Below, in pieces: positions 4,836-54,524 of a stretch of 64,000 nucleotides of DNA; position 1 is the first letter of the stretch; every line of letters begins with the position of its first letter. Location: assembly GCA_964355955.1 (NCBI GenBank), contig CAYHFQ010000004.1, forward strand, positions 1,162-65,161. The letters are read 5' to 3'. Under the pieces are notes generated by a model. The model made no database searches and was not told the origin of the DNA. It saw only the letters and a list, made by a program, of their open reading frames with translations. Made by a program: the position numbers and the translations under genes. Source of the stretch: an uncultured Gammaproteobacteria bacterium. Lineage in GTDB: Bacteria > Patescibacteriota > Patescibacteriia > UBA9934.

Positions 4836-4837
4836 TT

Positions 4838-4985: not shown

Positions 4986-5001
4986 CTCATGAATGATTTA
5001 A

Positions 5002-6663
<1,662 letters not shown>

Positions 6664-6860: not shown

Positions 6861-6899
6861 CTACTTTCTACCCTCTACAATCTACCAACCTATTACCCT

Positions 6900-12085: not shown

Positions 12086-15000
12086 ATGAAAGTTCGCGGT
12101 TTTAAAAGATTGAGCATAGTAGCCTTGTTGGCCCTGTTAGTTTTGCCGACATTGTTTTTGACGGTTAAGCCTGCGTTAGCTATTCCTACCGAATCGCCGG
12201 ATCTGGTGGCTAGTGATAATGCTAACGCTATCAGGTTGCAATCACAAAAAAAGGCTGAGAATTTAGCTAAGAAATCATTGTCTGGAATATTATTTTCGGG
12301 ATTGATTAACTTAATGCAATTTGCTGCAGATAAAGCTGCATATACGATGGCAACAGCTTTGGTGTCTGGTGGTGCAGCGGGTGACCCATTAGTGGAATTT
12401 AGGACGCCTGGTGTTTTGGCGCGTGACTACTTCCAATCGGTCGGTGGCGAGTTGGTTGGTTTGGTCAGCGAGGATTTGCAAACCACTAAGATTGGTGGCG
12501 TGGCCTATTTTGCCAACTTCAACTTATGCGCACCAAGTAGCCCAGCGGTGCTACTTAGTTTGAAATTGGGTATTAAATCCATGTTTGAAGAGCCGTTACC
12601 AAAATGCGAATGGAATGCTATAAAGACTAATTGGGCTGGTTTTATTGCAGATAATGCAAATACATTTGTTGGTGAGGACAGCATATTGAAGAATGACGCT
12701 GTGCTAACGCAATTAGCTAGTGCTTTTGACCCACAAACGAATGAATTTTCGGCTAGTATAAGTTTGTTTAATAAGGTGTTGTATCAGGCAAAGGGTAAGA
12801 GTGATACTGCTTTGATTAATTTGATTGTAAAGGGTCCAACTAAGGATATTTTGGACGTTGTTACGGGTAATGTTAAAACTGCTTCACAGACAATTGATTG
12901 GTATAGAATTTCTCAGAATGATCACATTGAAAATCAGAAGTATGATTTTGGAAAGATGCTGATAAGCAACTCAGCGGCTTTTGAACAGGTTGGTTTGCAT
13001 GCTGCTAGCATGTTCGCTAATACTTTGGTGACTTCTGGTTTGCAGGCACTTTTGAGCGGTCAATTTAAAACTAATGCTAATACAGTGGATCCATTCAATG
13101 CTGGTTTGGTGGCTTTGATGGATAAGGAGACTGAGCAGGCTAGATTAAAATCTCTTTATACTTCGGTACCATTTGAGGTCACGAATTATGATGCATTGTC
13201 TGATTATGCGAATTGTCCAAATAGCGGTAATAGGGGATTGTATAACTGTGTAATGGATACTAGTTTTGCGAGTGCGGTGGCTAGTGCTGCGGCTGATAAC
13301 GCTCTCACAGTGCAGGGGGCAGTTGATCAGGGTTTGGTGAATGGTGATTGGGCACTCATTCCAAGTTCGGATAAGTCGCGCGATCAAGATCCGTATTGCT
13401 ATACCTATGGTTATTGCTACAGTAACTTGGTGAAGTTACGTAAGGCTCGGATCATTCCTGACGGTTGGGAGATGGCGGCGGATTCAATTTATAATAGTGA
13501 GAGTAGTCCGGTGACCTTACAGACGGTGATGGACGGTTTTGATGATTGTAATGCGGCTGGACAGCCTGATGAGAGTCATAACTGGTGTAAGCTGATTGAT
13601 CCGAATTGGATTCTTAAGTATCCAGACACGACTTGTAAGAACTTGGCGTACGGTGAATTGCTAGAGTCCTCAACCGATGCTACTCGTCAACAAAACTGTG
13701 TAGATGCGCCAAGCTGTATTAGTACGGATGCGGATGGTAATTGTACTGGTGGTTATGGCTATTGCGTACGGGAAAGCAATGTATGGCAGTTCCGGGGTGA
13801 TAGCTGTCCGGACTATGCTTCATCCTGTTTATCATTTACCACGAGCGAGGGAGCGAAGGCTAATTACCTAACGAATACTGTTGATTACGGTAGTTGTAAT
13901 GCTGACAACGCTGGTTGTACATGGTACGCCACAGATAAGACCGTTCAGGATGATGGGACCTATGCTTGGCCAACGGTAACGAGCGTGGCAGAGGCAGACA
14001 TTGCTACTGATACTTATAAAACCCGCATTTACTACAATGATAATGTAGAAACTTGTGATGCGAGTGCGGCTGGCTGCAATAAGTTGGTAGAGCGTGGTAG
14101 TGATGTCGGCCTTAACTTAATTCCAAATTCGAGCTTTGAAACCGATGCTGACGTTAACGGCTTGCCAGATAATTGGTTGAGTACTAATGCGACGGCAGTG
14201 ACTTATGATGACAGCGGCGTAGCCTTGAATGGCGACTGGGTTATCGGCTCCAATCTCGGTGGTCTGCTTTATCAAAGTGGTATTGTGTTGCAGCAGGGTA
14301 GTTTTTACACCTTGTCCTATTATGCTCGATTGATGGATAGTTCTGATGGCGAAGAGACTGCTAACATGTTGATTAGTTTGAATGCAGATAATGGTGAAGT
14401 GATTGATTTGCGGGGTACTAGCATGAGTACGAGCTGTAATATTTACGTTGACGGCAGTAGCGTGACACAGCCTGAAGTATTGCAGTTATCCGGGTATACA
14501 ACTACTACCGACTATCAGCGTTATACCTGTACTTTTACTGCTCCAATTTTGACTGACCGATCAGCTACAGTGAGAGCATATGTTGACGTTGGTGACGGCG
14601 TGAATGTGGCTGATGTCTGGATGGATGAAATTCAACTTGAACAGTCAGAAACGGTGACAGCTTGGCATGATGGTTACAGCACGGCGTCGCCAACCTTTGT
14701 GTATGCTAACGTGCCACCAACCTACCTTGGTTGTACGGGGGCGGATACAGATGCTGCTGAATGTGCCGATTACTCGACCGTTTGTCAGGAGCAGGATGTT
14801 GGTTGTACGGAATATACGCCGGCTAATGGTGACCCAGCCGTGTTTGGTGTGGTGAGTAGTTTAGATACTTGTCCAGCCACTTGTGATGGTTATGACAGTT
14901 ATAAGCAGGAGGCCACATTGTACGAACCGGATGGTGACTTCCCAGTTTACTTTATTCCAAGCAGCGCCACCACTTGTAGCGCCGCGGACGCCGGTTGTGA

Positions 15001-18000
15001 CGAGTTTACTAAGCTGAGCGACGAATCGCTTGGTTACTTTACTTATCTCCGTGCTTGTTTGACGCCAGAGCAGGATGCTGGTTCCACTTACTATACTTGG
15101 GAGGGTAGCGACGCCACTGGTTACCAGTTGGTGACTTGGAAGTTGCTGGAATCTGATTTGGGTGATAGCGCTTCGAGTACATATACTGCCAGTTCTAACG
15201 TTGAGACGAATGTTGGCAAGGCCCCTTGTACAATGTGGGAAACTTCGGCGACTGGCATGACTTGCGATGATAACGCTGACGGTGACACTGGTGAACATTT
15301 TGATACAGATACTGAGACCTGTGATCAGCACGATGACATTTTCGCTGACCCAGATTGTCGCGAGTTCTATGACACTGCTGGTGATATTCACTACCGTTTG
15401 TGGAGTAAAACGGTGACGGTGAACGAGGCATGTGCTAGTTACCGTAAGACGGATTTGGTTGGCCTTGGACTTGATTCAAATGGTGACCTTGTAGACGATG
15501 GTGATGCCAATTGTACTAACTCCGGTGGCTTCTTCGATGATACTCTGAACGAGTGTACTTATTACGGTTACTCGGATGAAAGTAATACTTGTGCGGCGGC
15601 AGCTAACGGTTGTCGCGACTACACTGGTGGCCGCAGTGCCAACAGTCGTGTGGCCTTTACGGATACTTTAGAAACTGGGGACTATACGAGCTGGGATTCG
15701 ACGAGTACAGCGAATGTGACTTATAGCAATGAATCCGTAGCGACGGATGGGCACTCGCTGTCTTCACTTGGTCAGACCGTGTGGACGTTTATGGGTGGTG
15801 ACGGCACGGTGTGTGTGGACGAAGCTGGTTGTGATGAAACGGCGGTGGCTCTTGGTGGTACTTGTACCGTGGGGCTCGACGGTGGCTATTGCGGCACTTT
15901 GCAGGATGAACTTTACGCAGGTAAGACTTATACTTTAAGCTTCTGGGCTAAGGGAACTGGGACTTTGACGGCTGGGTTCAATGTCGACGCAGTAACTTCG
16001 GGTATTAACTTGAATACGGCTTCTGGCGCTGGACGTGATGCCACCTTCGGCACGGCTACGTTGTCGGCTAGTGACTGGCAGGAATATAGCTTGGGACCAC
16101 TCAACATGACGGCTGATGATTATGCTGACTTTGGCAACGGTACGGTCTTGGCCTTTATTCCAGATAGTTCCAGCAGCCGCTTCTACTTGGACAACGTGGT
16201 GCTGCGTGAGGGTGAGGATAGTATTGATGTGATTAAGGGTTCTTGGACGACGCCAACTGAATGTGACGCTACGCCAGAAGGTACGGCGTTCCCACAGTAT
16301 TACCTGGGTTGTCAGCAGTACACCTCGCAGACGGGTGAGACTAGCTATGAGAAGTCGTTCTCGTCCTTGTGTTCCGAGAAAAAAGTAGGTTGTTCGGCTT
16401 ACTACAGCACGGCCCAGACGGATAGCGCTTATGGCCAGGTGTATGGTTTGACGTGTTCGACTTTGGATGGCGCGATTGTCGGCGCGGCTACTAACTGTTA
16501 TTACGGCGTGATTGATGAGGATAGTGCGGATACTGTCGACCCAGTTTACGACACGACCAGCGCCTTTATGTGTACGATCGGTGTCGGGTTCTCGAGCTGT
16601 AGCGCCAACATGGACTGGAGTATTCCAGCTGATCAGTTGCTAAGTCACTTGAGTTACGGTCCTTCAGCACATGTGGTGCCGGCCGATGCACCGTTGTACT
16701 TGATTGTGGGTGATACTAATTCCTGTCAGTCGGCTGACGCTGGTTGTGAAGAGGTGGGCTTGCCAACTTTCAGCCCAGACCATACGGCAGTGACGGCTAG
16801 CACGAGCACCTACTTGCTTAACTCGCCAGCGGATTATGACACGACGCTGTGTTCGCAGGATGATTTGTTCTGTCAGGCTTGGGATGCTGGTGATAAAGGT
16901 GAATACTACTTTAAAGATCCGGGTAACCAGAGCTGTGAATACCGCACTGGCGTGACGGTGAATAATACGAGTTATGATGGTTGGTTCCGCACCGGAACAG
17001 ATAACTTCTGCTACGGCAGCGGGACTTGTGTGACTACTGATGGCTCTGTTGGTGCTAGTTGTACCACGGACGCTGAATGTGGCACGGGGGTTAGCTGTAA
17101 CATAACCAGCGGCTCTTACTTAGTTGGCGGTGATCAGTCTGGTATTTGGCATAATGGTGACCCTAGTTACAATAACTGGGTGGGTACTTGTGATGCGGGG
17201 GATAGTACTTGTAGCGAGTTCCAGGATCTATTGCAGATTCCAGACGGTCACTTGTACGGCGAGTCAGACGGTACCTCTTACTTCTTCTTGGATAATAGTA
17301 GTTTAGATGAATCTGGTTTGACCACTAACGAACAATGTAATGGATTGGTGAGCCAGAAGGCTGGTTGTGTCTTGTTTAACAACACGGCTGTGACAGCCCA
17401 GACTTATAATGCATCGGCCAGCTATGTTGCTAGCTTGCATGCGGATACGTTGTTTGGTGACAAGCCAAACGATTTAGAAAACCCGATTTCTTGTACGGAT
17501 GCCGTCACCTCGACGATTACTACGCCAGCGGGGGACAGTGTGGACTTGTGTGCCAGCCGCTGTGCTTACGGTAGTTATGCATTGCATGATGCGAATAACG
17601 GTAGTACGGATGTAAGTGATACTAGTGTAGGTGGTTATTATGCCGGGCGTTCAGCGGCGCAGATGGCTAGTGTTAATGGTTTAGCAGCTCTTGGTTTAAC
17701 AGCAACTGACCTATATACCTTTGGTGCTTCTTGTCTTAGCGATAGTGACTGTCCAGCTATGACCAGCGATTTGGGAGATGAGGTAGATGGAACATGTGGG
17801 ACAACTGTTATAACAATTTCTGAATCTTTCTATTCTACTGAAGTGAGTGAAATAGTGCCACGTCTAGAAGACGATAGTAACCGCGTACTTAAAGTTGACC
17901 GTGACCGTCAGTGTAGTGAATGGTTGAGCTGTGCTGATAGTCAGCAGGTGTGGGATGCCAGGACCGGTACTTACCGCACAATTTGTGGCGACATCGATCT

Positions 18001-21000
18001 CTGTAATGCTTATTCTGGCACTGGCGATGCCTCATTCTGTAGCAGTTGGGTGCAGGACGACGTGGCAACGGCGCTTGATGTGACTCGCTATACCAGTCGT
18101 GATACCAGTTGGTATGGTCACGAGTATTCAGGCTACGCCATTCCTGATTTGTTGCCGGTGCAGATGTTGAGTCAGGTCAACATTACGCCGCCACCGGGTT
18201 ACTGTAATTTGCCGATGTCGGCTGGACCGGCAGTGCGGTCTGAGTACCAGGGCGATACATGTAGTGTGGATGCTGACTGTAGTAATCAGGCAACTGCTTT
18301 CCCGACTATCTATCATGGCTCTTGCTCGCAAGCTACGGCAGCAGATTACCGCTTGGTTTTTGACGCTGGGAGTTGCGACGAGTCTTACGGCGCAAGCTGT
18401 ACAGTAGGTTACTGTAGCGACACTGCAGCGGCCTGTAGCAGTAATGATCAGTGTGGCAGTAACAGCTGTGTGATTGGTACCTGTTACACTGTTGGTAGCA
18501 CGGATTGTGTGACGGATAGCGATTGTAGCAGTGGTGATACTTGTTTGGCGGAAGGCAAATGTGCGACCGATAACGGTCAACTAGATGTGGGTGCTAGCTG
18601 CGATACAGGTGAAACTCTATATGCGGACCTTAACGATAAAACTGGAACGTGTATTAATGCGTCATGTTTGTTGACGGCAGAGGGACAGCCGGTGGATACA
18701 GGATTGACAGAAGCTAAGGATTGCCGAGCATATCCAGAAAGCAGTAGTCCGTTTGACAATGAGGTGGTGAGCATGTGGGTGAATCCGGATATGAGTGAGG
18801 AGCCTAATGGTAATGATAGTAAACAGCCGTTTGCTGATGTAGCATCAAAACTTGATATTGCGCCAGACATGGTGCCGTACTCGTTTATTACTGGTTTTGA
18901 TAATGCTAATGTTTGCGTGGGTGGTGTTGACTGCAGCTGTAGCTATAAAAAGATTACTTATGGTACTGGTAGCACAACCAGTTATGTTTCGGCTGATCCG
19001 GCAGTCTCGATAATAAACCAGTCGCTGGGTATTTGTAGCGGTGGTGGATTCGATGGTGCAGCTTGTGCAAAATCTGATGAGGACACCGGAGTTATTAGTG
19101 AAGCTATGTGTGAGCGTGGCTGCACCAGTACTGATTGTAGTGATGGCATAGCTGTGACAAGTGATGGAAATGATTCAGATGGTCATAGTACGACACTAAA
19201 TAATTCTGGTGATGTAAAAGGTGGCGGTACGTGTAATTATCCAACGCAGGAAGATACTATTCTTGGCCTAGACGGATATTGCTTGGAGCGCGATACGTCT
19301 ATTAATGTTAACGGTAACCGCGATGATGCTCACCGGGCATGTCTCACTTGGTTGCCGGTGGACCAGTTGGCGGGCAGTACAGACCTGTATGGCAAGGACT
19401 TGAGTGCTGGTTACTTTGCTCATGCTTCAGTATGTTCCAATGTCAGTATTTTCATGGACCTCGGACCAACATTAGTGCCAGAGTTGAATGCTACGGTTGG
19501 CACGGAGGGTACTCCTGGTGGTCAGATGGTAGCTTGTGCAGAAAGCAAAATAACTGACAGGACAGAAAGTAGCAGTACAGAATTTGATGGTACTGTTGAT
19601 GATGTATTTTCGGATGACACAATGTCGAATTGTGGTCATAATCTTGTTTGTCCTGCAGGATATTGGGCACTGATTGGTCAACCATCATGGGCTGATGGAG
19701 CGATCTCGATCAATAGTCAAGTAATCGCTAATGCGTGTATGGGCGTAGATTCCGCTGAGTATAATGATTGTCCTTACGTTTGTATTCCATTGGGTGCTGT
19801 TGAGCCAACTAGCGGCATGTCATGTGATTATGGCGGTGCCTATACAAACGAGGTATTGGCGAATACGCCAAATGGAGTTTCGGTATTAGATACTGTCAAC
19901 GATAGGCTGCCAGACAATGTGTACGCTATCGGTAGTCAGCCAAGTGGCAGAGCTGAGACTGATAGTTTGTATGGGTATCAGAACTTTGATTATGTAGCTA
20001 GTTCACTGAAATTGTGTCGTGTTAGGGGCGTAGAGTATACCGATGCCTTTGCCATGTCGGTATTTGCCCTTCCAGAGACAACCGATTATTACCGGAACTT
20101 AGTAGCAGGACAAGCTGTTACGGGTGTTGATATTTATACGTTTGATGAAAATGATCTAAATGTTGAATATTATCCAGCGTGTGCCGAAGTATTAAATGTT
20201 GTTGATTCTGCTACTGACATTGGTTACCCATTCACAGATCGTATTCTCAATGATTCCCAGAATTACATGATTAGTGATGACACTTATTCAAACATGCAGT
20301 ATGAACGAACGACTACTCCAGAGCCATTCGGTGTTATAACAACTGATTTATCAGCTAGAGATAATTCTGATCCACCAATAATTGCTGCATCCTGTGCTGA
20401 TTTAGCGGATGCTTCTGATGTGTATCGGAACTTTGATACTATTGTGCCACCTCTTGGTGATAGTTTGAACTCGTGTGATTCGTTAATCGATTATAGTGAT
20501 AAGGTAGCCGAATCGTATCCTGGTAATGCATTAGCACGAGCTTGGGTTAGTTTTACACTGAGTATACAAAAGGTCACCCATGGTACCTTCAGTGTTAAGA
20601 CATCAATGTGGTCTGTATTGCCTTCTGTGGGTGCTGCAGAAGAGGCATTTACTAGAATCAGTAAAATATTTGCCAAGGCTGACATTGGTACTGACGATAA
20701 CTTGAGTACCTGGGTCGGTGAGTGGTCTTCGGATGGGGGAGACGCGCTTGGTTATCAGACGGCTGCAACAACTTCTGATGATGGTTATGATGTTTATGAC
20801 GTACGCGGCGCTGAGGGTAATCCACCAAAGGTGTGGGCCTTGAGTAATAGTACGTGTGACGGGACGCAGTGTGAGGAGGGAGATGAAGGGGCGCTGACGT
20901 TGAATGATCAGAACAGTGGCGATTTGGAGGGAACGGGCGGGTTCTACCGTGCCTACCTCAAGTTCTATGCCGCGGCGGATAAGAACCAACTGCCGATTAG

Positions 21001-21562
21001 AAGAGTGATTGTTGATTGGGGTGACAATAAGCAGTCGGGTGCGGTTGATGGGGGTAACTTCTACAAGAACCATCGTGGGTATCAGGACGGTACGACGACG
21101 AGTATCTGTGATACGGATCCGAATGAGAGTACCTACGAGTGGGGCATGAATGGTGATAGTTGCGACCCTAACTACTTCAGCTATAACCATAACTACACTT
21201 GTAACGACTCCCTGATCTTGGGCATGGACGCTTGTGTCGACGCTAACACGGACGGCATTAACGACGTGTCGCCGTGTATGGCGGTGACGGACGAAGGCAG
21301 CTTCTGTGTCTTTACGCCGAAGGTACATGTACGTGATAACTGGGGTTGGTGTACGGGTAGCTGTGTTGATGCAAGCACGGACTCTATAATCAATCATGAG
21401 GCTGATGCATCAAATAACGGAGGAGCTGGTTGCTTTGACAGCGTTGGTACAATATCCGCAACTTCAATTCAGAGTGAATGTAATTATGAAAGCTATCCGC
21501 TTAATGCATCGAATAATGATCCTTGGGTGCATTATCAGGGAGCGGTATATGTGAAGCCATAA
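12086..21562 (+). CDS. Giant (3158 aa) secreted cysteine-rich surface protein with CBM4/9-like modules
   Basis: Signal peptide MKVRGFKRLSIVALLALLVLPTLFLTVKPALA. Recurrent C-x(3-5)-AGC-x-[ED]-[FY] motifs (TCDASAAGCNKL, TCSAADAGCDEF, SCQSADAGCEEV, CAAAANGCRDYTG). NLIPNSSFETDADVNGLPDNW is carbohydrate-binding-module-like. It is a single uninterrupted ORF. Confidence 0.85.
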   Translation: MKVRGFKRLSIVALLALLVLPTLFLTVKPALAIPTESPDLVASDNANAIRLQSQKKAENLAKKSLSGILFSGLINLMQFAADKAAYTMATALVSGGAAGDPLVEFRTPGVLARDYFQSVGGELVGLVSEDLQTTKIGGVAYFANFNLCAPSSPAVLLSLKLGIKSMFEEPLPKCEWNAIKTNWAGFIADNANTFVGEDSILKNDAVLTQLASAFDPQTNEFSASISLFNKVLYQAKGKSDTALINLIVKGPTKDILDVVTGNVKTASQTIDWYRISQNDHIENQKYDFGKMLISNSAAFEQVGLHAASMFANTLVTSGLQALLSGQFKTNANTVDPFNAGLVALMDKETEQARLKSLYTSVPFEVTNYDALSDYANCPNSGNRGLYNCVMDTSFASAVASAAADNALTVQGAVDQGLVNGDWALIPSSDKSRDQDPYCYTYGYCYSNLVKLRKARIIPDGWEMAADSIYNSESSPVTLQTVMDGFDDCNAAGQPDESHNWCKLIDPNWILKYPDTTCKNLAYGELLESSTDATRQQNCVDAPSCISTDADGNCTGGYGYCVRESNVWQFRGDSCPDYASSCLSFTTSEGAKANYLTNTVDYGSCNADNAGCTWYATDKTVQDDGTYAWPTVTSVAEADIATDTYKTRIYYNDNVETCDASAAGCNKLVERGSDVGLNLIPNSSFETDADVNGLPDNWLSTNATAVTYDDSGVALNGDWVIGSNLGGLLYQSGIVLQQGSFYTLSYYARLMDSSDGEETANMLISLNADNGEVIDLRGTSMSTSCNIYVDGSSVTQPEVLQLSGYTTTTDYQRYTCTFTAPILTDRSATVRAYVDVGDGVNVADVWMDEIQLEQSETVTAWHDGYSTASPTFVYANVPPTYLGCTGADTDAAECADYSTVCQEQDVGCTEYTPANGDPAVFGVVSSLDTCPATCDGYDSYKQEATLYEPDGDFPVYFIPSSATTCSAADAGCDEFTKLSDESLGYFTYLRACLTPEQDAGSTYYTWEGSDATGYQLVTWKLLESDLGDSASSTYTASSNVETNVGKAPCTMWETSATGMTCDDNADGDTGEHFDTDTETCDQHDDIFADPDCREFYDTAGDIHYRLWSKTVTVNEACASYRKTDLVGLGLDSNGDLVDDGDANCTNSGGFFDDTLNECTYYGYSDESNTCAAAANGCRDYTGGRSANSRVAFTDTLETGDYTSWDSTSTANVTYSNESVATDGHSLSSLGQTVWTFMGGDGTVCVDEAGCDETAVALGGTCTVGLDGGYCGTLQDELYAGKTYTLSFWAKGTGTLTAGFNVDAVTSGINLNTASGAGRDATFGTATLSASDWQEYSLGPLNMTADDYADFGNGTVLAFIPDSSSSRFYLDNVVLREGEDSIDVIKGSWTTPTECDATPEGTAFPQYYLGCQQYTSQTGETSYEKSFSSLCSEKKVGCSAYYSTAQTDSAYGQVYGLTCSTLDGAIVGAATNCYYGVIDEDSADTVDPVYDTTSAFMCTIGVGFSSCSANMDWSIPADQLLSHLSYGPSAHVVPADAPLYLIVGDTNSCQSADAGCEEVGLPTFSPDHTAVTASTSTYLLNSPADYDTTLCSQDDLFCQAWDAGDKGEYYFKDPGNQSCEYRTGVTVNNTSYDGWFRTGTDNFCYGSGTCVTTDGSVGASCTTDAECGTGVSCNITSGSYLVGGDQSGIWHNGDPSYNNWVGTCDAGDSTCSEFQDLLQIPDGHLYGESDGTSYFFLDNSSLDESGLTTNEQCNGLVSQKAGCVLFNNTAVTAQTYNASASYVASLHADTLFGDKPNDLENPISCTDAVTSTITTPAGDSVDLCASRCAYGSYALHDANNGSTDVSDTSVGGYYAGRSAAQMASVNGLAALGLTATDLYTFGASCLSDSDCPAMTSDLGDEVDGTCGTTVITISESFYSTEVSEIVPRLEDDSNRVLKVDRDRQCSEWLSCADSQQVWDARTGTYRTICGDIDLCNAYSGTGDASFCSSWVQDDVATALDVTRYTSRDTSWYGHEYSGYAIPDLLPVQMLSQVNITPPPGYCNLPMSAGPAVRSEYQGDTCSVDADCSNQATAFPTIYHGSCSQATAADYRLVFDAGSCDESYGASCTVGYCSDTAAACSSNDQCGSNSCVIGTCYTVGSTDCVTDSDCSSGDTCLAEGKCATDNGQLDVGASCDTGETLYADLNDKTGTCINASCLLTAEGQPVDTGLTEAKDCRAYPESSSPFDNEVVSMWVNPDMSEEPNGNDSKQPFADVASKLDIAPDMVPYSFITGFDNANVCVGGVDCSCSYKKITYGTGSTTSYVSADPAVSIINQSLGICSGGGFDGAACAKSDEDTGVISEAMCERGCTSTDCSDGIAVTSDGNDSDGHSTTLNNSGDVKGGGTCNYPTQEDTILGLDGYCLERDTSINVNGNRDDAHRACLTWLPVDQLAGSTDLYGKDLSAGYFAHASVCSNVSIFMDLGPTLVPELNATVGTEGTPGGQMVACAESKITDRTESSSTEFDGTVDDVFSDDTMSNCGHNLVCPAGYWALIGQPSWADGAISINSQVIANACMGVDSAEYNDCPYVCIPLGAVEPTSGMSCDYGGAYTNEVLANTPNGVSVLDTVNDRLPDNVYAIGSQPSGRAETDSLYGYQNFDYVASSLKLCRVRGVEYTDAFAMSVFALPETTDYYRNLVAGQAVTGVDIYTFDENDLNVEYYPACAEVLNVVDSATDIGYPFTDRILNDSQNYMISDDTYSNMQYERTTTPEPFGVITTDLSARDNSDPPIIAASCADLADASDVYRNFDTIVPPLGDSLNSCDSLIDYSDKVAESYPGNALARAWVSFTLSIQKVTHGTFSVKTSMWSVLPSVGAAEEAFTRISKIFAKADIGTDDNLSTWVGEWSSDGGDALGYQTAATTSDDGYDVYDVRGAEGNPPKVWALSNSTCDGTQCEEGDEGALTLNDQNSGDLEGTGGFYRAYLKFYAAADKNQLPIRRVIVDWGDNKQSGAVDGGNFYKNHRGYQDGTTTSICDTDPNESTYEWGMNGDSCDPNYFSYNHNYTCNDSLILGMDACVDANTDGINDVSPCMAVTDEGSFCVFTPKVHVRDNWGWCTGSCVDASTDSIINHEADASNNGGAGCFDSVGTISATSIQSECNYESYPLNASNNDPWVHYQGAVYVKP

Positions 21563-29142: not shown

Positions 29143-29213
29143 TATTGCTTATGGAGGGGGGTGACATTCGCGGTATTCCAATAGTTAGCCAGTTTTTAAC
29201 GAATGGGGAGTCC

Positions 29214-31073
29214 ATGGAAAAACTGGAGACGATGCAAGAAAAGTATAAACTGCCTGTTGATCGGGCGGACGAGTATTTAATGTTATGTCGGGCGGTGTTG
29301 GACGGGGATATACAACTTGACCACATGCCAGAGATGATTGCCGAGGCGTTTGGGGTGGATGAGGAGATGGCTAAGAAGATTGCTATGGATGTGGTGGCGA
29401 TTAGGTTGTTGCCGCTTGAGGGTTACTGGCCGGGAGTTGAGGCGCAGATTGTGAAGTGGGGTGGAAAAGTGAGTGATTATTCGGCATTTCGTGTAGGTAA
29501 GGAGAAGATTACGGCGGATAGGTTTGCTGGTAATTTAACGGAGAACTTAGAATTGACGTTGTCGCCCGTGCATATTAAGCGTTTGGGATTTTTGGTGAAG
29601 AGTTATTTTGCTGGCGAGAAGACGAGGGATGCGACAATGACGTTTTTTGCCCGACCGGTGAATATCGGAGGCTTGGGGTTGGCGCTTGAACAAGCTAAGG
29701 GTTTGATGGAGAGTATTGATGAGTCTAAAGAGATGGTGGAGTTGGTGGATGATGAGAGGGATGAGACTTTTAGGGAGGAATCTGAAGAGCCGGTAGAACC
29801 AGTTAATGAGGTTACTGAGAGTGATAATATTTTAAAGGAGGCTCGGCCGGTAGAAGAGATGAAAATTGAGACACTAATAGGCGGGGATACCATGCCCCGC
29901 CAGGAGGAGCCTGTAGTCGAGCCAATTATTGAAGATGTAAAGCGGGGGACGGTGACCCCGCCTATTACGAAGATAAAAGAAGAGGTCGTTGCAGAGAAGA
30001 TACCCGAAGAAATTCCAGTGATAGCGAATTTGCCGGAGGTGGCGCCGAGTATGGTAGTTTCGACCACGACGCCGGTGACGCCGAGGGTGATGGTGGCTGG
30101 GGGAGAGCTTGCGTCCGACAGCGAAGAGATTGCGGCGCAGGCTAAAGTGATTGCCAAGAAAGATATTGCGAGTGAGGGTAATGACGAGAAGTTAAAGGCG
30201 GCGGTGGATTTGGTGCTGACGTCAGCGTCGACCTTATTGCAGGCTAAGAGATTGGCGAAGAAAGAGTTTGCGCCAGTTTGCGAGATGATGATTAGAGGCG
30301 TACGAGATGTCATGCAGACGCGGGGAGTGCTAGTGAAAGAGTTTGGATTGGACGAGGCGTCGATTGATGCTTTGCTGGGATTCGTCGATGATGGGGCGAA
30401 ATTCTATCATCAGGCTGAGATTAAGCGGGGGACGGTGACCCCCCCTATTGAAGTGAAAGCTGCGGTGCCAACAGTAGGTGAAGTGATGGACCGGAGGTTC
30501 GCGGAGGTGACGAAAACGTTGCCTAAGGCACCGATTGTGCCGGTGATGGATGAAGCTAGGGTGAGTGCAGCCAGAAGCAAAGAAGATGAGGTAGCGGAAC
30601 AAGCGGCGAAGATTGATGTGGCTAAGCTCGAAGTGGCGGCAGAAGCGGCCAAGCCGGTGTTAGCGAAAGCGATGCTGACGGTGGGCAGTGTGGCGCCAAG
30701 CTTGCCAGGTGAGCCTGTGATGATGAACGACGTGAAGTTTAAGCCGCGATTGGTTGGCCCGGTGGATGAGCTCGGTACTATGATGCCGGCTGACTTTAGG
30801 CGTTTGTCGAGCGATCCAGTAGAGGCGACCAAGAAGATTGAAGATTTGTTGGCGGCGCTGCAGACAACGTCGTTTGAAGAAAGGATTAGAGGTATTCAGG
30901 CTTGGCGCGTGAGCCCAGTTTGTAGATTATATGCGGCCATGGCTGGCGAAGCGTTGCAGGCTGGCGTGGCGTTGGCGGAAGTAGCGAGTAAGAGACGTAA
31001 TAAGGGCGAGGAGAGTTTGAGCCCGGCGGAGATGAAGGCGATAGGATCGTTGAACGCAAAGATGAGATTCTAG
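29214..31073 (+). CDS. Acidic hypothetical protein with internal repeat (KRGTVTPPI twice)
   Basis: GGGGAG Shine-Dalgarno 4 nt before the ATG at 29214. Glu-rich with no TM helix. The repeat lines are VKRGTVTPPITKIKEEV and IKRGTVTPPIEVKAAV. Confidence 0.55.
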   Translation: MEKLETMQEKYKLPVDRADEYLMLCRAVLDGDIQLDHMPEMIAEAFGVDEEMAKKIAMDVVAIRLLPLEGYWPGVEAQIVKWGGKVSDYSAFRVGKEKITADRFAGNLTENLELTLSPVHIKRLGFLVKSYFAGEKTRDATMTFFARPVNIGGLGLALEQAKGLMESIDESKEMVELVDDERDETFREESEEPVEPVNEVTESDNILKEARPVEEMKIETLIGGDTMPRQEEPVVEPIIEDVKRGTVTPPITKIKEEVVAEKIPEEIPVIANLPEVAPSMVVSTTTPVTPRVMVAGGELASDSEEIAAQAKVIAKKDIASEGNDEKLKAAVDLVLTSASTLLQAKRLAKKEFAPVCEMMIRGVRDVMQTRGVLVKEFGLDEASIDALLGFVDDGAKFYHQAEIKRGTVTPPIEVKAAVPTVGEVMDRRFAEVTKTLPKAPIVPVMDEARVSAARSKEDEVAEQAAKIDVAKLEVAAEAAKPVLAKAMLTVGSVAPSLPGEPVMMNDVKFKPRLVGPVDELGTMMPADFRRLSSDPVEATKKIEDLLAALQTTSFEERIRGIQAWRVSPVCRLYAAMAGEALQAGVALAEVASKRRNKGEESLSPAEMKAIGSLNAKMRF

Positions 31074-31114
31074 AAGGTAGAGGGTAGAGAGTAGAACGTA
31101 GATTGTGCTATAAT
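31071..31114 (+). promoter_or_regulatory. Five tandem heptamers TAGA-N-N-G followed by extended -10 (TGCTATAAT)
   Basis: TAGAAGG TAGAGGG TAGAGAG TAGAACG TAGATTG then TGCTATAAT. The ATG at 31121 lies 7 nt after the -10 box, so the message is predicted leaderless. Confidence 0.55.
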
Positions 31115-31120
31115 GAAAGC

Positions 31121-31561
31121 ATGGCTGGTCGCAATCAATTTGTCGTGCCGCAGTTCCTCGACGTCGAGGCGAAAATTATCGGGCCAATTACGGCGCGGCA
31201 GTTTGTTATTTTTTTAGTGGTGCTGTTGTTTGAGTTCTTATTATATCGAATATTTTTAAGTTTAGCTGTCATTCTAATAGTTGGTTTGCCAGTGTTGGGC
31301 CTAGGTATACTTTTTGCTTTTTTTAAGGTTAATGGTCAACCTTTCCATTATATTCTGCTGAACGTAATTCAGACCATGCGGAAACCACGCTTAAGAGTTT
31401 GGGATAAGACGTTGTCTGATGCTGACATTAGGGTCTTTATGTTGCCGCCAGTAGTCGCTCCACCGCCACCGCCAGTAGCCAAGTCACCGATCGAAAGAGG
31501 AAGGTTGTCGGAATTGACGCTCGTGGTTAATACAGGCGGAAGTTACAATCCGGAGGACTAA
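31121..31561 (+). CDS. Small two-TM membrane protein, VirB3/PrgI-like
   Basis: N-terminal VVPQFLDVEAKIIGPITARQFVIFLVVLLFEF followed by a hydrophobic hairpin. Located immediately upstream of the VirB4-family gene, which is the canonical order. Confidence 0.45.
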   Translation: MAGRNQFVVPQFLDVEAKIIGPITARQFVIFLVVLLFEFLLYRIFLSLAVILIVGLPVLGLGILFAFFKVNGQPFHYILLNVIQTMRKPRLRVWDKTLSDADIRVFMLPPVVAPPPPPVAKSPIERGRLSELTLVVNTGGSYNPED

Positions 31562-31570: not shown

Positions 31571-32257
31571 ATGGCAACCAATAAATTAGCTAAGCCAAAG
31601 GCGGGGCCACCAACACAGAGATATTTGGATATTGCCGAGATTCGTGAAGATGTGGTGGTGATGAAAGACGGAACACTGCGAACGGTGCTGATGACGAGCA
31701 GCCTAAATTTTGCTTTGAAGAGTGAAGACGAACAACAGGCCGTGATTCAGGGGTATATGCAGTTTTTAAATAGTTTGGAGCACCCGATTCAGATCGTTAT
31801 TCAATCGAGAAGGATGAACGTGGATGGGTATTTGGAACGTTTAAAGCAACAAGAAGATACGATTGGCAATGAGTTACTGAAGTCACAAATTCGAGACTAC
31901 ACGTCGTTTATTAGCGAGTTGGTGGAGTTAGGTGAGATCATGCAAAAGAGATTTTTTGTCATTATTCCGTTTGACCCACTGCAAGATAAGAAGCAAAGTT
32001 TTGTGACTAAATTGCAGACTGCCTTGGCACCAGCTTCGGTAGTGAAGTTGAATGAAAAGGTGTTTCGTACTAGGCGGGATAGTCTGATGCAGCGCACGAG
32101 CAATGTGGCTGGCGGCTTGGGCAGTATGGGCTTGCAAAGCGCTATGCTCGATACGCAGGGTCTGATTGAGTTGTATTATTCGGTGTATAATCCAGATATT
32201 GCAGAAACGCAGAAAATGACCGATATCAATAAGTTAAGAATCGAGACAAAATTCTAG
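31571..32257 (+). CDS. VirB4-family protein, N-terminal segment (separated from ATPase segment by a single in-frame TAG)
   Basis: DVVVMKDGTLRTVLMTSSLNFALKSEDEQQAVIQGYMQFLNSLEHPIQIVIQS. It is in the same reading frame as the 32261 ORF, with only TAG at 32255-32257 between them. Confidence 0.5.
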   Translation: MATNKLAKPKAGPPTQRYLDIAEIREDVVVMKDGTLRTVLMTSSLNFALKSEDEQQAVIQGYMQFLNSLEHPIQIVIQSRRMNVDGYLERLKQQEDTIGNELLKSQIRDYTSFISELVELGEIMQKRFFVIIPFDPLQDKKQSFVTKLQTALAPASVVKLNEKVFRTRRDSLMQRTSNVAGGLGSMGLQSAMLDTQGLIELYYSVYNPDIAETQKMTDINKLRIETKF

Positions 32258-32260: not shown

Positions 32261-34174
32261 ATGGCTTTTGATGTCGAAAAACTGCAGCAGAGTAAGGTGA
32301 CTGTAGCTGCGCCTAAAGTTCAGCGCGTTTTGTCGCCGCAGGAATTAGCAGCGGCGCAGGAAAGAGTAACGCTTGAAGAAGAGCGAACTTACAGGCGCGG
32401 TGTGGTGTCGATCAGAGATTTGATTGCGCCAGCGGCGTACCAGATTTTTCCTAACTATTTGTTGTTGGGCGATACTTACGTCCGAACGTTGTTTGTGACG
32501 ATGTACCCTCGTTATGTGGGTATTGGTTGGGGGACGCCGATTATCAACTACAACAGTACCATTGATATCGGCATGTTCTTCTATCCAGTAAAACCGGAGA
32601 TTATTTTGAAGCAACTCAAGAATAAAGTAGGTGTACTTTCTGCGCAGATTATTTCTGATAATGAGAAAGGCGCGGCTCGTGACCCGATTCGTGAAACGGC
32701 GTTACGTGATATTGAACAATTGCGCGATGACTTGACGCAAGGCATCGAGCATTTCTTTCAATTTGCTTTTTATGTCACTGTTTACGCCAAGAATAAAGAG
32801 GAACTGGATAAACGATCGGAACAAATTGAAAGTATTTTTGGAACAAAATTAATTTCTAGTAAACGCGGTTTCTATCAGGCGGAGCAGGGCTTTAATTCCA
32901 CCATGCCACTTGGCAATGATGAGTTGATGATTAGCTTTAACATGAATACGTCGCCAATTGCGTCGTCATTCCCATTCACGTCAAGCGATTTGAGTAGCGA
33001 TAATGGTATTTTGTACGGCATTAATAGGCACAATAACTCGCTTATTTTGTTTGACCGTTTTAGCTTGCAGAATGCGAATGCCTTGGTGTTTGCGACTTCT
33101 GGTGCGGGTAAATCTTACACGGTCAAACTGGAAATTTTACGTTCGCTCATGATGGGAACGGACGTGATTGTTATTGACCCGGAAATGGAATACCGACACC
33201 TGAGCGATGCGGTTGGTGGGACGTATGTGAACGTTTCTTTGGCGTCCGATGCGAAGATTAACCCGTTTGATTTGCCACGCAGCAAGGGGGATGAAACGAG
33301 TTCGGAAGATGTTTTGCGAAGTGCGGTGATTACAATTAAGGGCTTGCTCCGGATCATGATTGGGACGCCGCGCGGTGAGAAGAGTCAGCTTGGTTTTACG
33401 CCGGAAGAAGATTCGTTGCTCGACCGGGCGTTGCTTGAAACGTATGCTAAGAAAGATATTACAGCTGATCTGCCTAACTTTATTGGGGTTGAATATCCGG
33501 TGCTGCAAGATTTGCAGGATGTGTTGCAAGGCATGCAAGGAGCAACGGATTTGGTGGCGCGTTTGCAAAAGTATACCGAGGGGACGTTTGCTGGCTTGTT
33601 GAATAGTTTGACGACGGTGGAGATGCGTAACCAGTTGGTTATTTTCTCAGTACGAGATTTGGAGGACGAGTTGCGCCCAATGGCGATTTATACCATCGTT
33701 AACTACATTTGGAATGTGGTGCGCAGTGAACGTAAGAAGCGTATTCTCGTGATCGACGAGGCTTGGTGGCTCATGCAGAATGAAGACTCGGCCAAGTTTA
33801 TTTTTGCGCTAGTCAAGCGAGCGCGTAAGTACTTCCTGGGCGTGACAACGATTACGCAGGATGTGAACGACTTTTTAACCAGTGTTTACGGCCAGGCGAT
33901 TGTGACCAACTCTTCCATGCAGATGTTGCTGAAACAGTCACCAGCGGCGATTGACTTGATTCAGAAGACGTTTAACCTGACAGATAGCGAGAAGTACTTG
34001 TTGCTTGAGAGCGCAGTGGGTGAAGGAATTTTCTTTGCTGGGCAGAAACATGCGGCCATTAAGGTGGTGGCGAGTTATACTGAGGACCAGTTAATTACGA
34101 CGAACCCACAGCAGTTATTGGAGCAAGAGCAAGCTAAAAAACAGTTTGAGAAATCATTAGGCGGCGGCAGTTAG
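32261..34174 (+). CDS. VirB4/TrbE/CagE-family type IV secretion ATPase (C-terminal ATPase segment)
   Basis: Walker A LVFATSGAGKSYTVK and Walker B RILVIDEAWWLM (the DEAW motif typical of VirB4/TraC). Conserved C-terminal TQ...ESAVGEGIFFAG. Confidence 0.7.
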   Translation: MAFDVEKLQQSKVTVAAPKVQRVLSPQELAAAQERVTLEEERTYRRGVVSIRDLIAPAAYQIFPNYLLLGDTYVRTLFVTMYPRYVGIGWGTPIINYNSTIDIGMFFYPVKPEIILKQLKNKVGVLSAQIISDNEKGAARDPIRETALRDIEQLRDDLTQGIEHFFQFAFYVTVYAKNKEELDKRSEQIESIFGTKLISSKRGFYQAEQGFNSTMPLGNDELMISFNMNTSPIASSFPFTSSDLSSDNGILYGINRHNNSLILFDRFSLQNANALVFATSGAGKSYTVKLEILRSLMMGTDVIVIDPEMEYRHLSDAVGGTYVNVSLASDAKINPFDLPRSKGDETSSEDVLRSAVITIKGLLRIMIGTPRGEKSQLGFTPEEDSLLDRALLETYAKKDITADLPNFIGVEYPVLQDLQDVLQGMQGATDLVARLQKYTEGTFAGLLNSLTTVEMRNQLVIFSVRDLEDELRPMAIYTIVNYIWNVVRSERKKRILVIDEAWWLMQNEDSAKFIFALVKRARKYFLGVTTITQDVNDFLTSVYGQAIVTNSSMQMLLKQSPAAIDLIQKTFNLTDSEKYLLLESAVGEGIFFAGQKHAAIKVVASYTEDQLITTNPQQLLEQEQAKKQFEKSLGGGS

Positions 34175-34177
34175 AAC

Positions 34178-34292
34178 TTGCCCAGTTGGCCTATTTTGAG
34201 CTTGTCGCTGCGCCAATCTCTTCACCGCACGCCAAAGTGCGCCTCAGAGACTTGGCTTGCTCCGCACTCAAACTAGTCGCAACTGAACAAGT
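34178..34292. repeat. Family-2 MITE-like repeat, copy E1
   Basis: Imperfect terminal inverted repeats CAGTTGGCCTATTTTG ... CAAACTAGTCGCAACTG. Internal hairpin GCAC-GCCAAA-GTGC. Confidence 0.75.
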
Positions 34293-34309
34293 CCTCCCGA
34301 ATCACTTTA

Positions 34310-34867
34310 ATGTATAATATGCAACGTAAAACTGAAATCATCATTGCTATCATCATCATTGTCGCTTTAGCGATTCTGCTGTTTTTCTGGTTCAACCGAA
34401 CGGTTAAGCAGGCTGCTACGCCAACTAAGGTGACACCTGAGGTGACGACGTCGATTAAGACGACGCCAACTCCGAGTGCAACTGGTATAGCAGTGGCAGC
34501 TCCATCATCGGCTAGTACGGTGGCTCGAGTTTTTGTCGAAAGATTTGGAAGCTATTCGACCGAGTCGGGTTATACGAATATTGATGACGTGATGTCACTG
34601 ACGACAAAAGATTTGCAGGGTCGCTTGCAGAGTTTATTAGAGGCGGCGCAAAAGGAGGCACAGAGTGATTATTACGGTGTCTCGACGCGCTTGATGGGGA
34701 GTAAGACAGAAGTGACGGCTGAAACGTCCATGACGTATAAGATGTCGACGCAACGGCAAGAGTCGTTTGATTCGCCAGCTAATACTTCGGTGAGGTACCA
34801 GGATATTCGAGTTGTGCTGACAAAATCTGGTGATAGTTGGCTCGTAAGCGACTTCACCTGGCTGTAG
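34310..34867 (+). CDS. Bitopic membrane protein (N-terminal TM, ~120-aa extracytoplasmic domain), function unknown
   Basis: IIIAIIIIVALAILLFFWF TM helix then a Thr/Pro linker. Bracketed on both sides by family-2 repeats. Confidence 0.5.
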   Translation: MYNMQRKTEIIIAIIIIVALAILLFFWFNRTVKQAATPTKVTPEVTTSIKTTPTPSATGIAVAAPSSASTVARVFVERFGSYSTESGYTNIDDVMSLTTKDLQGRLQSLLEAAQKEAQSDYYGVSTRLMGSKTEVTAETSMTYKMSTQRQESFDSPANTSVRYQDIRVVLTKSGDSWLVSDFTWL

Positions 34868-34987
34868 AACTTCCTCGGTTGGCCTATTTTGGGCTTGTCG
34901 CTGCGCCAATCTCTTCACCGCACTGCTCTAGTGCGCCTCAGAGACTTGGCTTGCTTCGCACCCAAACTAGTCACAACTGTGAAAGTT
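34868..34987. repeat. Family-2 MITE-like repeat, copy E2
   Basis: About 90% identical to E1. The internal hairpin loop is changed (GCACT-GCTC-TAGTGC). Confidence 0.75.
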
Positions 34988-35005
34988 CTCTAATGATCGA
35001 ATCAT

Positions 35006-45095: not shown

Positions 45096-45220
45096 AAAAT
45101 CACCGAGTTGGCCTATTTTCGTCTCACAACTGCACAAATCTTTTTCAACTTAGCACCAACTAAGCTTCAAAATATTTGTTTGTTGTTCAACGAAACTAGT
45201 CTCAACTGGGTGGTTTTTTT
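45096..45220. repeat. Family-2-related MITE-like element, copy E3 (between convergent recG and radA)
   Basis: Ends GAGTTGGCCTATTTTCG ... CGAAACTAGTCTCAACTGGG, flanked by an A-run and a T-run. The interior has diverged. Confidence 0.55.
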
Positions 45221-45228: not shown

Positions 45229-46512
45229 TTATTTACTCAATACTTCGCTAATATTTTTTATTGTTTTGGGGGTGAGGAGAGTGTGACAACCGAGGCGTTC
45301 GGCTTCTTTGAGGCGGCGGTCCAAGAAGGGGACGGAGCGAATTTCACCGCCGAGACCAAGTTCTCCAATGACGACGGCGTCTTTGGGGAGGGCGACGTTT
45401 TTGATGGCGGAAAGAATGGCGGCAGCGACAGCTAGATCCGCGGCCTTCTCCGTAATCTTCATGCCGCCGACGACGTTAACGTAGACGTCCAAGTCGCCAG
45501 TGCGGGCGCCGCAGCGTTTGCTTAAAATGGCGAGGAGCATTTGCAGACGGCTGGCGTCGAAACCGCTGGTACGGCGAACGGGGTTGGCGAAGAGCGACTT
45601 GTCGACGAGGGCCTGAACTTCGAGCAGGAATGGCCGACTACCTTCCATGATGCAGGTAACGACGGAACCGGCGCCGGCGACACGCTCGGCTAAGAACTTG
45701 GCGGAGGGATTCTCCACAGCCATCATGCCGTTCTCGGTCATTTCGAAAACGCCAACTTCGTCTGTGCTGCCAAAACGGTTCTTGGTACTGCGGAGGATGC
45801 GGTAGGAGGAATCAGGGTCGCCTTCGAGCGTGAGGAGGGTGTCGACTAAATGCTCCATGGTTTTGGGGCCAGCAATGCCGCCATCTTTAGTGACTTGGCC
45901 GATGATGAGGACGGGCACGTTGCTGCTTTTGGCGTAGTTGATGAGTTCGCTCGTAGCAGCCCGGACGGCGTTTGGGGTGCCAGGGTAGGCCTCGAGACCG
46001 TCGACCATCATGGTCTGGATGGAGTCGATGATGAGGAGACTTGGTTTTTGAGTTTTGGCGGCCGCTAAAATACTGCCGATTTCTACGGCATTACTGAACA
46101 TGATGGATTCTGGGGGCAGGCCGAGGCGGTTAAAGCGCAAGAGAACTTGACCTTCGGATTCTTCGCCGGAGACGTAGTAAGTGAGACCAGGAATGGCGTG
46201 AGCCAGCTGAGCGACGAGGGTTGATTTACCAATACCAGGTTCGCCAGCGAGCAGAGTGACGGAACCGGCCACGAGGCCACCGGAGAGCACGCGGTCTAGT
46301 TCCGAGAGGCCACTTGGCGTGCGGCTGACTTGAGCCTTGCTGGCCGCGCTCAAGGCGAGGACGGGAGCTGGTTTGGCTTTGGTCGAAGTGAGACTCGGAG
46401 CTTTACCTGGTGCCGTACCGCCTTCTTCGCTTAACGTGCCCCAACCGCCGCATTCGGTGCAACGGCCTTGCCATTTACTGTATTGGTAGTCGCATTTTGA
46501 ACAGGAGAACAT
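45229..46512 (-). CDS. radA: DNA repair protein RadA/Sms
   Basis: N-terminal zinc finger CSKCDYQYSKWQGRCTECGGW, Walker A LLAGEPGIGKST, and a Lon-like C-terminus. Confidence 0.9.
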   Translation of the reverse strand: MFSCSKCDYQYSKWQGRCTECGGWGTLSEEGGTAPGKAPSLTSTKAKPAPVLALSAASKAQVSRTPSGLSELDRVLSGGLVAGSVTLLAGEPGIGKSTLVAQLAHAIPGLTYYVSGEESEGQVLLRFNRLGLPPESIMFSNAVEIGSILAAAKTQKPSLLIIDSIQTMMVDGLEAYPGTPNAVRAATSELINYAKSSNVPVLIIGQVTKDGGIAGPKTMEHLVDTLLTLEGDPDSSYRILRSTKNRFGSTDEVGVFEMTENGMMAVENPSAKFLAERVAGAGSVVTCIMEGSRPFLLEVQALVDKSLFANPVRRTSGFDASRLQMLLAILSKRCGARTGDLDVYVNVVGGMKITEKAADLAVAAAILSAIKNVALPKDAVVIGELGLGGEIRSVPFLDRRLKEAERLGCHTLLTPKTIKNISEVLSK

Positions 46513-46521
46513 AGTGGGGCA

Positions 46522-48021: not shown

Positions 48022-48027
48022 ACAAGA

Positions 48028-48672: not shown

Positions 48673-48677
48673 ATTTT

Positions 48678-49901: not shown

Positions 49902-49910
49902 AGGGAGAAA

Positions 49911-50681: not shown

Positions 50682-50705
50682 AGACCCCAGTAGTATAACA
50701 TGAAG

Positions 50706-53330: not shown

Positions 53331-53615
53331 ACTATTATTTATTTCGTCTTTGCGAGCGTCAGCGAAGCAATCTTGGTGAGCTCTCCATTCCAGCCAACGC
53401 GAGACTCGGGGAGTCCCTTTCTTTCTCTCTCGGGCATTTTGACGATCGATATTTACTACTTGAGTGAAATATCGCCACCAAAATGCGCGTCCCTCGGTCG
53501 ACGAAAGGGACATCCCACTCGTCTTCGTTGACTTCGGGCTCGTACCGTTGACATCCGAGGAAGACGGGGTCTACCTCGGATGTCGGCTCGTTAAGACGCG
53601 GTGGCTGCGAGTGCG

Positions 53616-54509: not shown

Positions 54510-54524
54510 AAGGCGAGAGCTGGG

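Follow-up and report, generated by a model that had tools for sequence, protein, structure and literature searches.

Leaderless mRNAs transcribed from extended -10 promoters are known from Actinobacteria, Deinococcus and other bacteria, and the STRR of cyanobacteria are intergenic heptanucleotide direct repeats. Here, we describe a locus at which elements resembling both kinds adjoin each other. In a 64-kb stretch of contig CAYHFQ010000004.1, five unspaced heptads of the form TAGA-N-N-G abut a predicted extended -10 promoter directly ahead of prgI, a gene of a type IV secretion system (T4SS)-like module. The whole stretch of DNA analysed, at its full length of 64,000 nt, is referred to as the window. 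PrgI is the VirB3-like component of Gram-positive type IV secretion systems.

Direct repeats of a similar period are also read by regulators. The CtsR operator of Firmicutes consists of tandem A/GGTCAAA units, two heptads placed 3 nt apart (A/GGTCAAA-NAN-A/GGTCAAA). On RNA, HutP reads UAG-N4-UAG-N4-UAG, and TRAP reads G/UAG repeats with spacers of 2-3 nt. Heptanucleotide repeats form the commonest class of long simple-sequence repeat (LSSR) among prokaryotes, a statement of Mrazek 2007 that PMC4679880 cites. TAACTGA heptamers lie directly upstream of start codons in marine Beggiatoaceae genomes that are poor in Shine-Dalgarno (SD) sites (MacGregor 2015, PMC4679880).

Both elements of the prgI locus are of known kinds, one being an extended -10 promoter of the leaderless type and the other a family of heptamer repeats, here in a lineage that is new for it. 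With described leaderless promoters of the extended -10 type (TGnTATAAT) it shares the TGn plus hexamer, the lack of need for a -35 box, an AUG 6-7 nt further on and the lack of an SD motif; it differs in its host, which belongs to the Patescibacteria, and in a start that is predicted from sequence. Our literature search on leaderless transcripts and SD motifs in Patescibacteria and the Candidate Phyla Radiation found no description of leaderless promoters. For the array, the best fit by comparison is the class of intergenic heptanucleotide simple-sequence repeats (LSSR, STRR and TAACTGA type). Common to both are unspaced heptamers in sets of 2-6 copies, an intergenic position near start codons where SD sites are rare, the recurrence of one unit at many loci, and a copy number that differs between relatives. 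In contrast to the fixed heptamer of that class, the unit here is GTAGANN with two free positions; the prgI array is also reversed and lies upstream of the promoter, outside the 5' leader, and the arrays of the host lineage often form inverted pairs that fold into hairpins. Taken together, with modest confidence we favour an autonomous leaderless promoter next to a lineage-specific simple-sequence repeat.

A predicted leaderless promoter ahead of prgI

The sequence TGCTATAAT carries TG one base before a TAnnnT hexamer and adjoins the heptads directly, as an earlier interpretation made from the DNA letters alone (the sequence-only reading) had described. The A of the prgI ATG is the seventh base past the hexamer, which agrees with the spacing given in that reading, and no GGAGG precedes the start. 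The prgI product begins with MAGRNQFVVPQF, and the alignment of its orthologues begins at ATG 31121. For this reason, TTG 31103 was rejected as an alternative start.

When reference genomes were scanned with the VirB4-like protein encoded downstream of prgI, 80 loci at 70-99% protein identity were returned, nearly all labelled Candidatus Uhrbacteria or Patescibacteria; the host belongs to Candidatus Uhrbacteria (Patescibacteria). Individual compared loci are cited by L numbers. The prgI start was located in 75 orthologous loci, in which TANNNT was scanned 3-11 nt upstream; the assignment of start codons and -10 boxes relied on pattern and homology. In 47 of these 75 loci, the prgI ATG is preceded by an extended -10 of the form TGNTANNNT, whose end lies 5-8 nt away and mostly 6 nt; any TANNNT is present in 54. 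At 4000 random ATGs of the same loci, the corresponding frequencies are 1.2% and 9%. Since the gap between -10 and ATG is fixed at 6 nt, the expected start of transcription is the A of the ATG. A conserved, autonomous leaderless promoter of the extended -10 type at prgI is thus highly probable, and the proposal of the sequence-only reading that a leaderless prgI-virB4 transcript arises from an internal promoter is borne out by this enrichment and by the lack of an SD motif, with the start itself a prediction.

In the proposed mechanism, TGCTATAAT would serve as a sigma-70-type extended -10, and RNA polymerase would start about 7 nt downstream, at or beside the A of ATG 31121. The result would be a leaderless mRNA for prgI and probably also for the TraC-like gene and virB4. 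Gaps of 9 nt between prgI and the TraC-like open reading frame (ORF) and of 3 nt between this ORF and virB4 separate the three genes, and both downstream genes are probably co-transcribed with prgI. Of 49 window genes, not one is preceded by an SD motif, in agreement with the published observation that an anti-SD motif is detected in only 48% of Parcubacteria 16S rRNAs (PMC9297842).

The DNA upstream of the -10 turns over among relatives. Between the upstream stop codon and the prgI ATG lie 1 to >200 nt; in 33 of the 75 loci the interval is at most 20 nt, so that the "-35 region" there coincides with the upstream gene's end. Many relatives have the -10 itself formed on the stop codon of the upstream gene (TGATAGAAT; …TTC TGA TAG AAT…). 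The alignment of nearest relatives is invariant only in its coding flanks, in TAGA at the stop codon and in TG-TATAAT. A GC hairpin takes the place of the heptads in L001, whose VirB4 is 99% identical, and L002 carries unrelated sequence; both retain TAGAAG or TAGAAT at the same stop codon. The spacer of L040 contains a structured repeat element resembling family D1 (described below) and a single ATCTACC. No TAGANNG array was found at prgI in related loci, including relatives whose VirB4 is 93-99% identical. A scan of the 80 related loci for 2.5 units of TAGANNG returned one match, in L061 at another gene boundary, and none at prgI. With unrelated sequences ahead of the -10 in different relatives, the promoter evidently works without a particular upstream sequence, which argues against an ancestral operator; the predicted promoter would require nothing specific upstream of its -10. 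The promoter scan that flagged TGCTATAAT had paired it with TAGAGA as a -35 box at a spacer of 18 nt. This assignment was rejected, as TAGAGA has no counterpart in relatives, where the region is unrelated or coding.

A separate observation concerns the hairpin in L001. A 30-nt GC-hairpin repeat, TAAAGCGGGGGACGGTGACCCCGCCTATTA, occurs three times in the window, at 29938-29967 and 30421-30450 (both inside the acidic ORF upstream of prgI, where it encodes KRGTVTPPI) and at 50789-50818 in another gene. A near-identical hairpin of this type is found at about 4820-4850 of L001, in the prgI spacer, where it replaces the heptads.

The heptad array and the period-7 repeats of Uhrbacteria

As the sequence-only reading had stated, the five phased heptads follow one another without spacers; their first TAG is the stop codon of the acidic ORF itself. 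The unit is TAGA-N-N-G with the core GTAGA. All five copies agree at five of the seven positions, variation is confined to positions 5 and 6, and the 35 bases contain a single C. Relative to the ATG, which is also the predicted start, the array spans -16 to -50 and ends 15 nt before the ATG. Tandem Repeats Finder detects it at period 7 with 4.6 copies. The distribution of arrays was assessed within the 64 kb of the host genome that form the window. Phased TAGA at 7-nt spacing occurs there at two places only, at prgI (five copies) and at 6884 on the minus strand (four copies), and all phased GTAG/CTAC pairs are confined to three arrays (31071, 6859 and 5001). In 300 third-order Markov simulations of the window, a phased run never exceeded two copies. 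The prgI array is far beyond chance. The sequence-only reading had left room for slippage noise in case the heptads did not recur; with two more arrays in the window and further ones in relatives, the prgI array is not isolated noise of this kind.

The array is base-for-base identical in three independent assemblies (L081-L083) and is therefore not an assembly artefact. Reading this identity as a sign of constraint was rejected: these contigs share the window haplotype up to 31659, so the identity says nothing about selection. Beyond this point, L082 and L083 diverge abruptly from the window, from 31660 inside the TraC-like gene, with 63 mismatches in about 360 nt in L082 and even more divergence in L083. 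The pattern points to a breakpoint of recombination or to an assembly that is chimeric.

Folding of the array region revealed no structure beyond shuffled controls (z +1.04 and +0.27), and the array is therefore not a terminator, attenuator or riboswitch. A search of the window for phased GTAG/CTAC units yielded no partner arm in cis. Rfam at gathering thresholds returned only three tRNAs across the whole window, and at permissive E-values no additional RNA family in 30900-31300 and 4300-6950. We considered whether a 57-aa antisense ORF (30886-31059, minus strand), which lies downstream of the array in its CTAC orientation, might be a leadered gene; its TTG start, its low-complexity product and its position antisense to a conserved coding region led us to reject it.

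Two sister arrays carry the prgI heptad on the opposite strand (Table 1). One lies ahead of groEL, with 19 nt from its end to the groEL ATG (5041), and is preceded by TGATTTAAT (4994-5002). The other ends 13 nt before the ATG (6900) of the release-factor gene prfB. GTAGAGGGTAGA and the end unit GTAGATT are features that they have in common with the array at prgI. In the relatives L204 and L205 (about 82-85% nucleotide identity to the window) and L206 (about 75-82%), arrays of the CTACC type are kept at the groEL and prfB sites in the same orientation. The groEL array has three units in the window and four in L204 and L205, and is interrupted in L206; the prfB-site array is kept in L204 and L205. 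At an equal evolutionary distance, the prgI array is absent. At yqeY of L204, a strong TGGTAGAAT is followed by 9 nt, a CTACC array, 16 nt and the ATG; given this order, the array there would have to be a transcribed, G-free 5' leader. By this pattern, the groEL and prfB arrays are probably G-free or G-poor 5' leaders as well, that is, elements acting at the RNA level; in this they are comparable to the TAACTGA heptamers of Beggiatoaceae. Their putative -10 boxes, TTTAAT at 4997-5002 and 6855-6860, are weak and assigned by sequence. A role of this kind cannot apply to the prgI array, which has the reverse-complement sequence and is placed upstream of its promoter. In L205, an array in GTAG orientation begins at the TAG stop codon of a VKOR gene, as the prgI array does at its own stop.

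The surroundings of groEL show further rearrangement. Upstream of groES (4548), a CIRCE-like inverted repeat, TTGGCAGTC-N9-GAGTGCCAA (about 4481-4507), overlaps a TTGACA box and suggests heat-shock control of the HrcA type. The gap between groES and groEL measures 205 nt in the window (4836-5040), where it holds a D1 element and the heptad array, and 4 nt in L207 (9996-10001), whose GroEL is 87% identical to that of the window. From the 4-nt gap in L207 it follows that the operon of the window was split by an insertion, after which groEL may have gained its own promoter or leader. Comparison with 9770-9900 and 11625-11815 of L204 and L205 places the structured groEL-prfB element of the window (6664-6850) between groES and groEL in these relatives, whose own groEL-prfB site is occupied by a D1-type element. 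Given this swap, intergenic cassettes move or recombine between species that are about 83% identical in nucleotides.

Period 7 is the commonest class of tandem repeats in 1.08 Mb of Uhrbacteria loci, with 39 of 125 arrays overall and 20 of the 42 that are intergenic. The core varies by genome (GCTA, TTCG, AACT, AGGG, CGTAGA). Two placements recur: mostly C-poor arrays 2-15 nt past a stop codon, and mostly G-poor arrays 7-21 nt ahead of a start codon. Arms in the same spacer are reverse complements of each other and form long hairpins (fold z -5 to -8; Table 1). In several of these hairpins, and most clearly in those of L068 and L020, pairing involves the constant bases, and the variable ones make up periodic internal loops; such pairing is a possible explanation for a constant core with free positions. 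In L009 and L020, a period-7 hairpin of this kind lies between the acidic gene and the prgI -10. The distant Uhrbacterium L061 carries a GTAGA/TCTACG array with a constant core at a spacing of 7 or 9 nt.

The prgI array is likewise unspaced and intergenic, with a recurrent unit, a variable copy number or presence, and a period that is over-represented in the lineage; among the compared loci, it is found only in the window haplotype. It looks like a solitary post-stop arm of a lineage-specific heptanucleotide family with the core GTAGA/TCTAC. The seed of such an arm would probably have been the ancestral TAGAAG at the stop codon, and the arm would fill a spacer that turns over freely in evolution. 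Most likely, its role at the promoter would be none, or a non-specific one in supplying the DNA from -16 to -50.

Possible roles of the array

The sequence-only reading took the heptads for a binding array of a regulator. In this explanation, a lineage-specific protein would bind them cooperatively, with one dimer per heptad as in the case of omega, would repress or activate the prgI promoter, and would also bind the arrays at groEL and prfB. The array does overlap the -35 region of what is probably a genuine promoter. A constant GTAGA core with two variable positions resembles a recognition site, the core is constant in the array of L061 as well, and the heptad occurs at three gene boundaries in the 64 kb and nowhere else. 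The layout recalls the ribbon-helix-helix (RHH) protein omega of plasmid pSM19035, whose omega2 operators consist of 6-10 unspaced 7-bp repeats that overlap the -35 region and function in either orientation (PMC4627068). The match is one of format only, as the omega consensus is (T/A)ATCAC(T/A) (PMC4627068) versus TAGANNG here. Nevertheless, we consider the operator unlikely. The prgI array is kept in none of 78 related loci examined, though the promoter is kept, and the DNA upstream of it is unrelated. At groEL and prfB, conservation of the arrays is restricted to the orientation that is G-poor on the mRNA strand, which indicates a role of RNA rather than DNA. The position differs between loci, upstream of the -10 at prgI and downstream of it at yqeY of L204, and groEL, prfB, yqeY and prgI form no functional regulon. 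A Pfam scan of about 40 window ORFs found no helix-turn-helix, RHH or other transcription-factor domain, although a regulator could be encoded elsewhere. Of the regulated internal promotion proposed by the sequence-only reading, the internal promoter therefore finds support and the regulation by heptads does not. The suggested likeness to the CtsR operator fails on both sequence and spacing. The two have in common a direct heptad repeat near a promoter, and one sister array does lie upstream of groEL, but the prgI units are TAGANNG, five in number and unspaced, and depart from the CtsR consensus. No ctsR gene or domain was found among the ORFs scanned, and the heat-shock control of the window looks to be of the CIRCE type, as the inverted repeat upstream of groES suggests.

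An action of the array as RNA appears highly improbable. Here, the array would be transcribed, at the 3' end of the mRNA of the upstream gene or within read-through transcripts, and would act either as a protein site with UAG at 7-nt spacing or by antisense pairing with the groEL and prfB leaders of the CUACC type. The array and the prfB leader have a 12-nt exact complement, GUAGAGGGUAGA, in common, and the array is the exact reverse complement of sister arrays that are probably transcribed leaders. It reads UAG-N4 five times over, the tract is unstructured and hence accessible, and in relatives a post-stop arm pairs in cis with a pre-start arm. Set against this, the array has no terminator or antiterminator alternative, no cis partner arm in the window and no conservation in relatives, and trans pairing of mRNAs encoded 24 kb apart is pure conjecture. 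The exact 7-nt period of UAG triplets is shared with HutP and TRAP sites, from which the array differs in lacking a terminator or antiterminator context; moreover, the sister arrays read CUA on their mRNAs. No hutP- or mtrB-like gene and no HutP-, TRAP- or CsrA-like protein was identified in the window.

It is very unlikely that the array arose by purely local slippage, in which TAGAAGn at the stop codon was amplified in place and the likeness to the groEL and prfB arrays is coincidental, with no family behind it. The seed is ancestral in view of TAGAAG or TAGAAT at the same stop in L001 and L002, heptamers are the preferred slippage unit in prokaryotes (PMC4679880), and the array is absent in relatives. 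However, its five-base core recurs in the only two other phased arrays of the window, together with a shared 12-mer and the GTAGATT end unit; variation is limited to two positions, and an equivalent array opens at a stop codon in L205. More broadly, the period-7 arrays could be a system of gene-boundary punctuation in Uhrbacteria, a view that we regard as doubtful. C-poor post-stop arms would pair with G-poor pre-start arms into hairpins of 4-bp helices and 3-nt internal loops, which may be read by some factor or process and may serve in transcript insulation, RNase processing or ribosome loading during translation that lacks SD and anti-SD motifs. Within such a system, the prgI array could be a genuine control site, acting as an operator at -16 to -50 or through RNA pairing with the CUACC leaders of groEL and prfB; such pairing would couple expression of the T4SS-like genes to the synthesis of a chaperone and a release factor.

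We return to the reading favoured here, an autonomous leaderless promoter flanked by a lineage-specific repeat, in which a neutral or spacer role of the array is most likely. Several points weigh against it. The invariance of five out of seven positions is unlike the random decay of a slippage product and implies constraint or a templated origin. Each observed array of the family is adjacent to a start or stop codon, a hint of function, and the prgI array occupies exactly the region (-16 to -50) in which a repressor or activator would act. Among the relatives compared, none falls between about 84% and 99.7% nucleotide identity, which limits what they can show of recent selection on the array, and the genome-wide distribution of arrays rests on the 64 kb of the window. 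A metagenome scan for 3.5 units of TAGANNG gave >120 matches, mostly near-perfect simple repeats; the pattern is therefore too unspecific to define a regulon. Among these matches, only L084 (7623-7700) and L106 (minus strand, about 11636-11700) resemble the layout at prgI, with TAGAGTG-type heptads directly followed by TGTATAAT and an ATG shortly after.

Gene setting, neighbouring repeats and significance

The T4SS-like module comprises an M23 peptidase, a 964-aa membrane protein, an acidic protein, PrgI, a TraC-like 228-aa protein and a VirB4 ATPase; the features at its centre are listed in Table 1. The acidic ORF has no Pfam match, and its C-terminus (...RF-stop) is kept in orthologues. The VirB4-like function is seemingly split between the TraC-like ORF and the P-loop ATPase. 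Gene calls in L081-L083, whose prgI haplotype is that of the window itself, show the same split pair.

Table 1. Positions of the features at prgI, of the two sister arrays and of period-7-arm hairpins in related loci.
Feature	Position	Strand	Basis or remark
Acidic 642-aa ORF of the T4SS-like module	29145-31073	+	ORF list
TAG stop of the 642-aa ORF	31071-31073	+	First TAG of the heptad array
Five heptads without spacers	31071-31105	+	Direct sequence read
Heptad TAGAAGG	31071-31077	+	
Heptad TAGAGGG	31078-31084	+	
Heptad TAGAGAG	31085-31091	+	
Heptad TAGAACG	31092-31098	+	
Heptad TAGATTG	31099-31105	+	
Extended -10 TGCTATAAT	31106-31114	+	TG 31106-31107, TATAAT 31109-31114
GAAAGC, 6 nt		+	Separates -10 hexamer and prgI ATG (31121-31123)
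prgI (VirB3-like), 146 aa	31121-31561	+	Pfam PrgI PF12666, E 1.4e-10
TraC-like 228-aa ORF	31571-32257	+	PF26593, precomputed annotation on identical ORF in L081
VirB4-type ATPase, 637-aa P-loop	32261-34174	+	Pfam match
Sister array ATCTACC AACTACT ATCTACC	5001-5021	+	Before groEL; prgI heptad on other strand
Sister array ATCTACT TTCTACC CTCTACA ATCTACC	6859-6886	+	Before release-factor gene prfB; prgI heptad on other strand
Period-7-arm hairpin, L020	4475-4620		Stop to next start or -10
Period-7-arm hairpin, L009	4455-4562		Stop to next start or -10
Period-7-arm hairpin, L034	5060-5180		Stop to next start or -10
Period-7-arm hairpin, L061	8050-8170		Stop to next start or -10
Period-7-arm hairpin, L068	5225-5310		Stop to next start or -10

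Two further families of intergenic repeats are present in the window. Family D1, with a length of about 147 nt, has four copies (4317-4463, 4838-4984, 57886-58032 and 60451-60597), which start 2-15 nt past the stop codon of a plus-strand gene, always in gene orientation. The copy at 4836-5045 folds as a single long imperfect hairpin that is not clearly better than shuffled controls (z -1.4), and Rfam contains no match to the family. The D1 elements may be terminators, 3'-UTR (untranslated region) elements or miniature inverted-repeat transposable elements (MITEs). Family D2/D4/D5, of about 125 nt, is found at 34172-34300, 34865-34995 and 45103-45144; one copy begins on the TAG stop codon of virB4, another on that of the next gene, and the third lies just past a recG-like ORF that ends at 45095. 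Elsewhere in the window, a giant ORF of 3158 aa (12086-21562) is located downstream of a TSP3-repeat protein, and a 499-aa protein with a T4SS_pilin domain is encoded on the minus strand at 46522-48021, about 12 kb from the virB4 module. GC skew is strong and uniformly positive (0.10-0.38) over all 64 kb, including a block of minus-strand genes (45229-55076), and therefore tracks the replication strand rather than the transcription strand.

The comparative evidence for a conserved internal leaderless promoter in an uncultured lineage of Patescibacteria is a solid result. This predicted promoter at prgI would divide the T4SS-like cluster into separate transcription units, and promoters of this kind can be of use for annotating starts and operons in genomes without SD signals. 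The prgI heptads, in turn, point to period-7 arrays and hairpins at gene boundaries throughout Uhrbacteria. If these arrays do function as punctuation, prgI would be a convenient test case, with a single arm next to a well-defined promoter.

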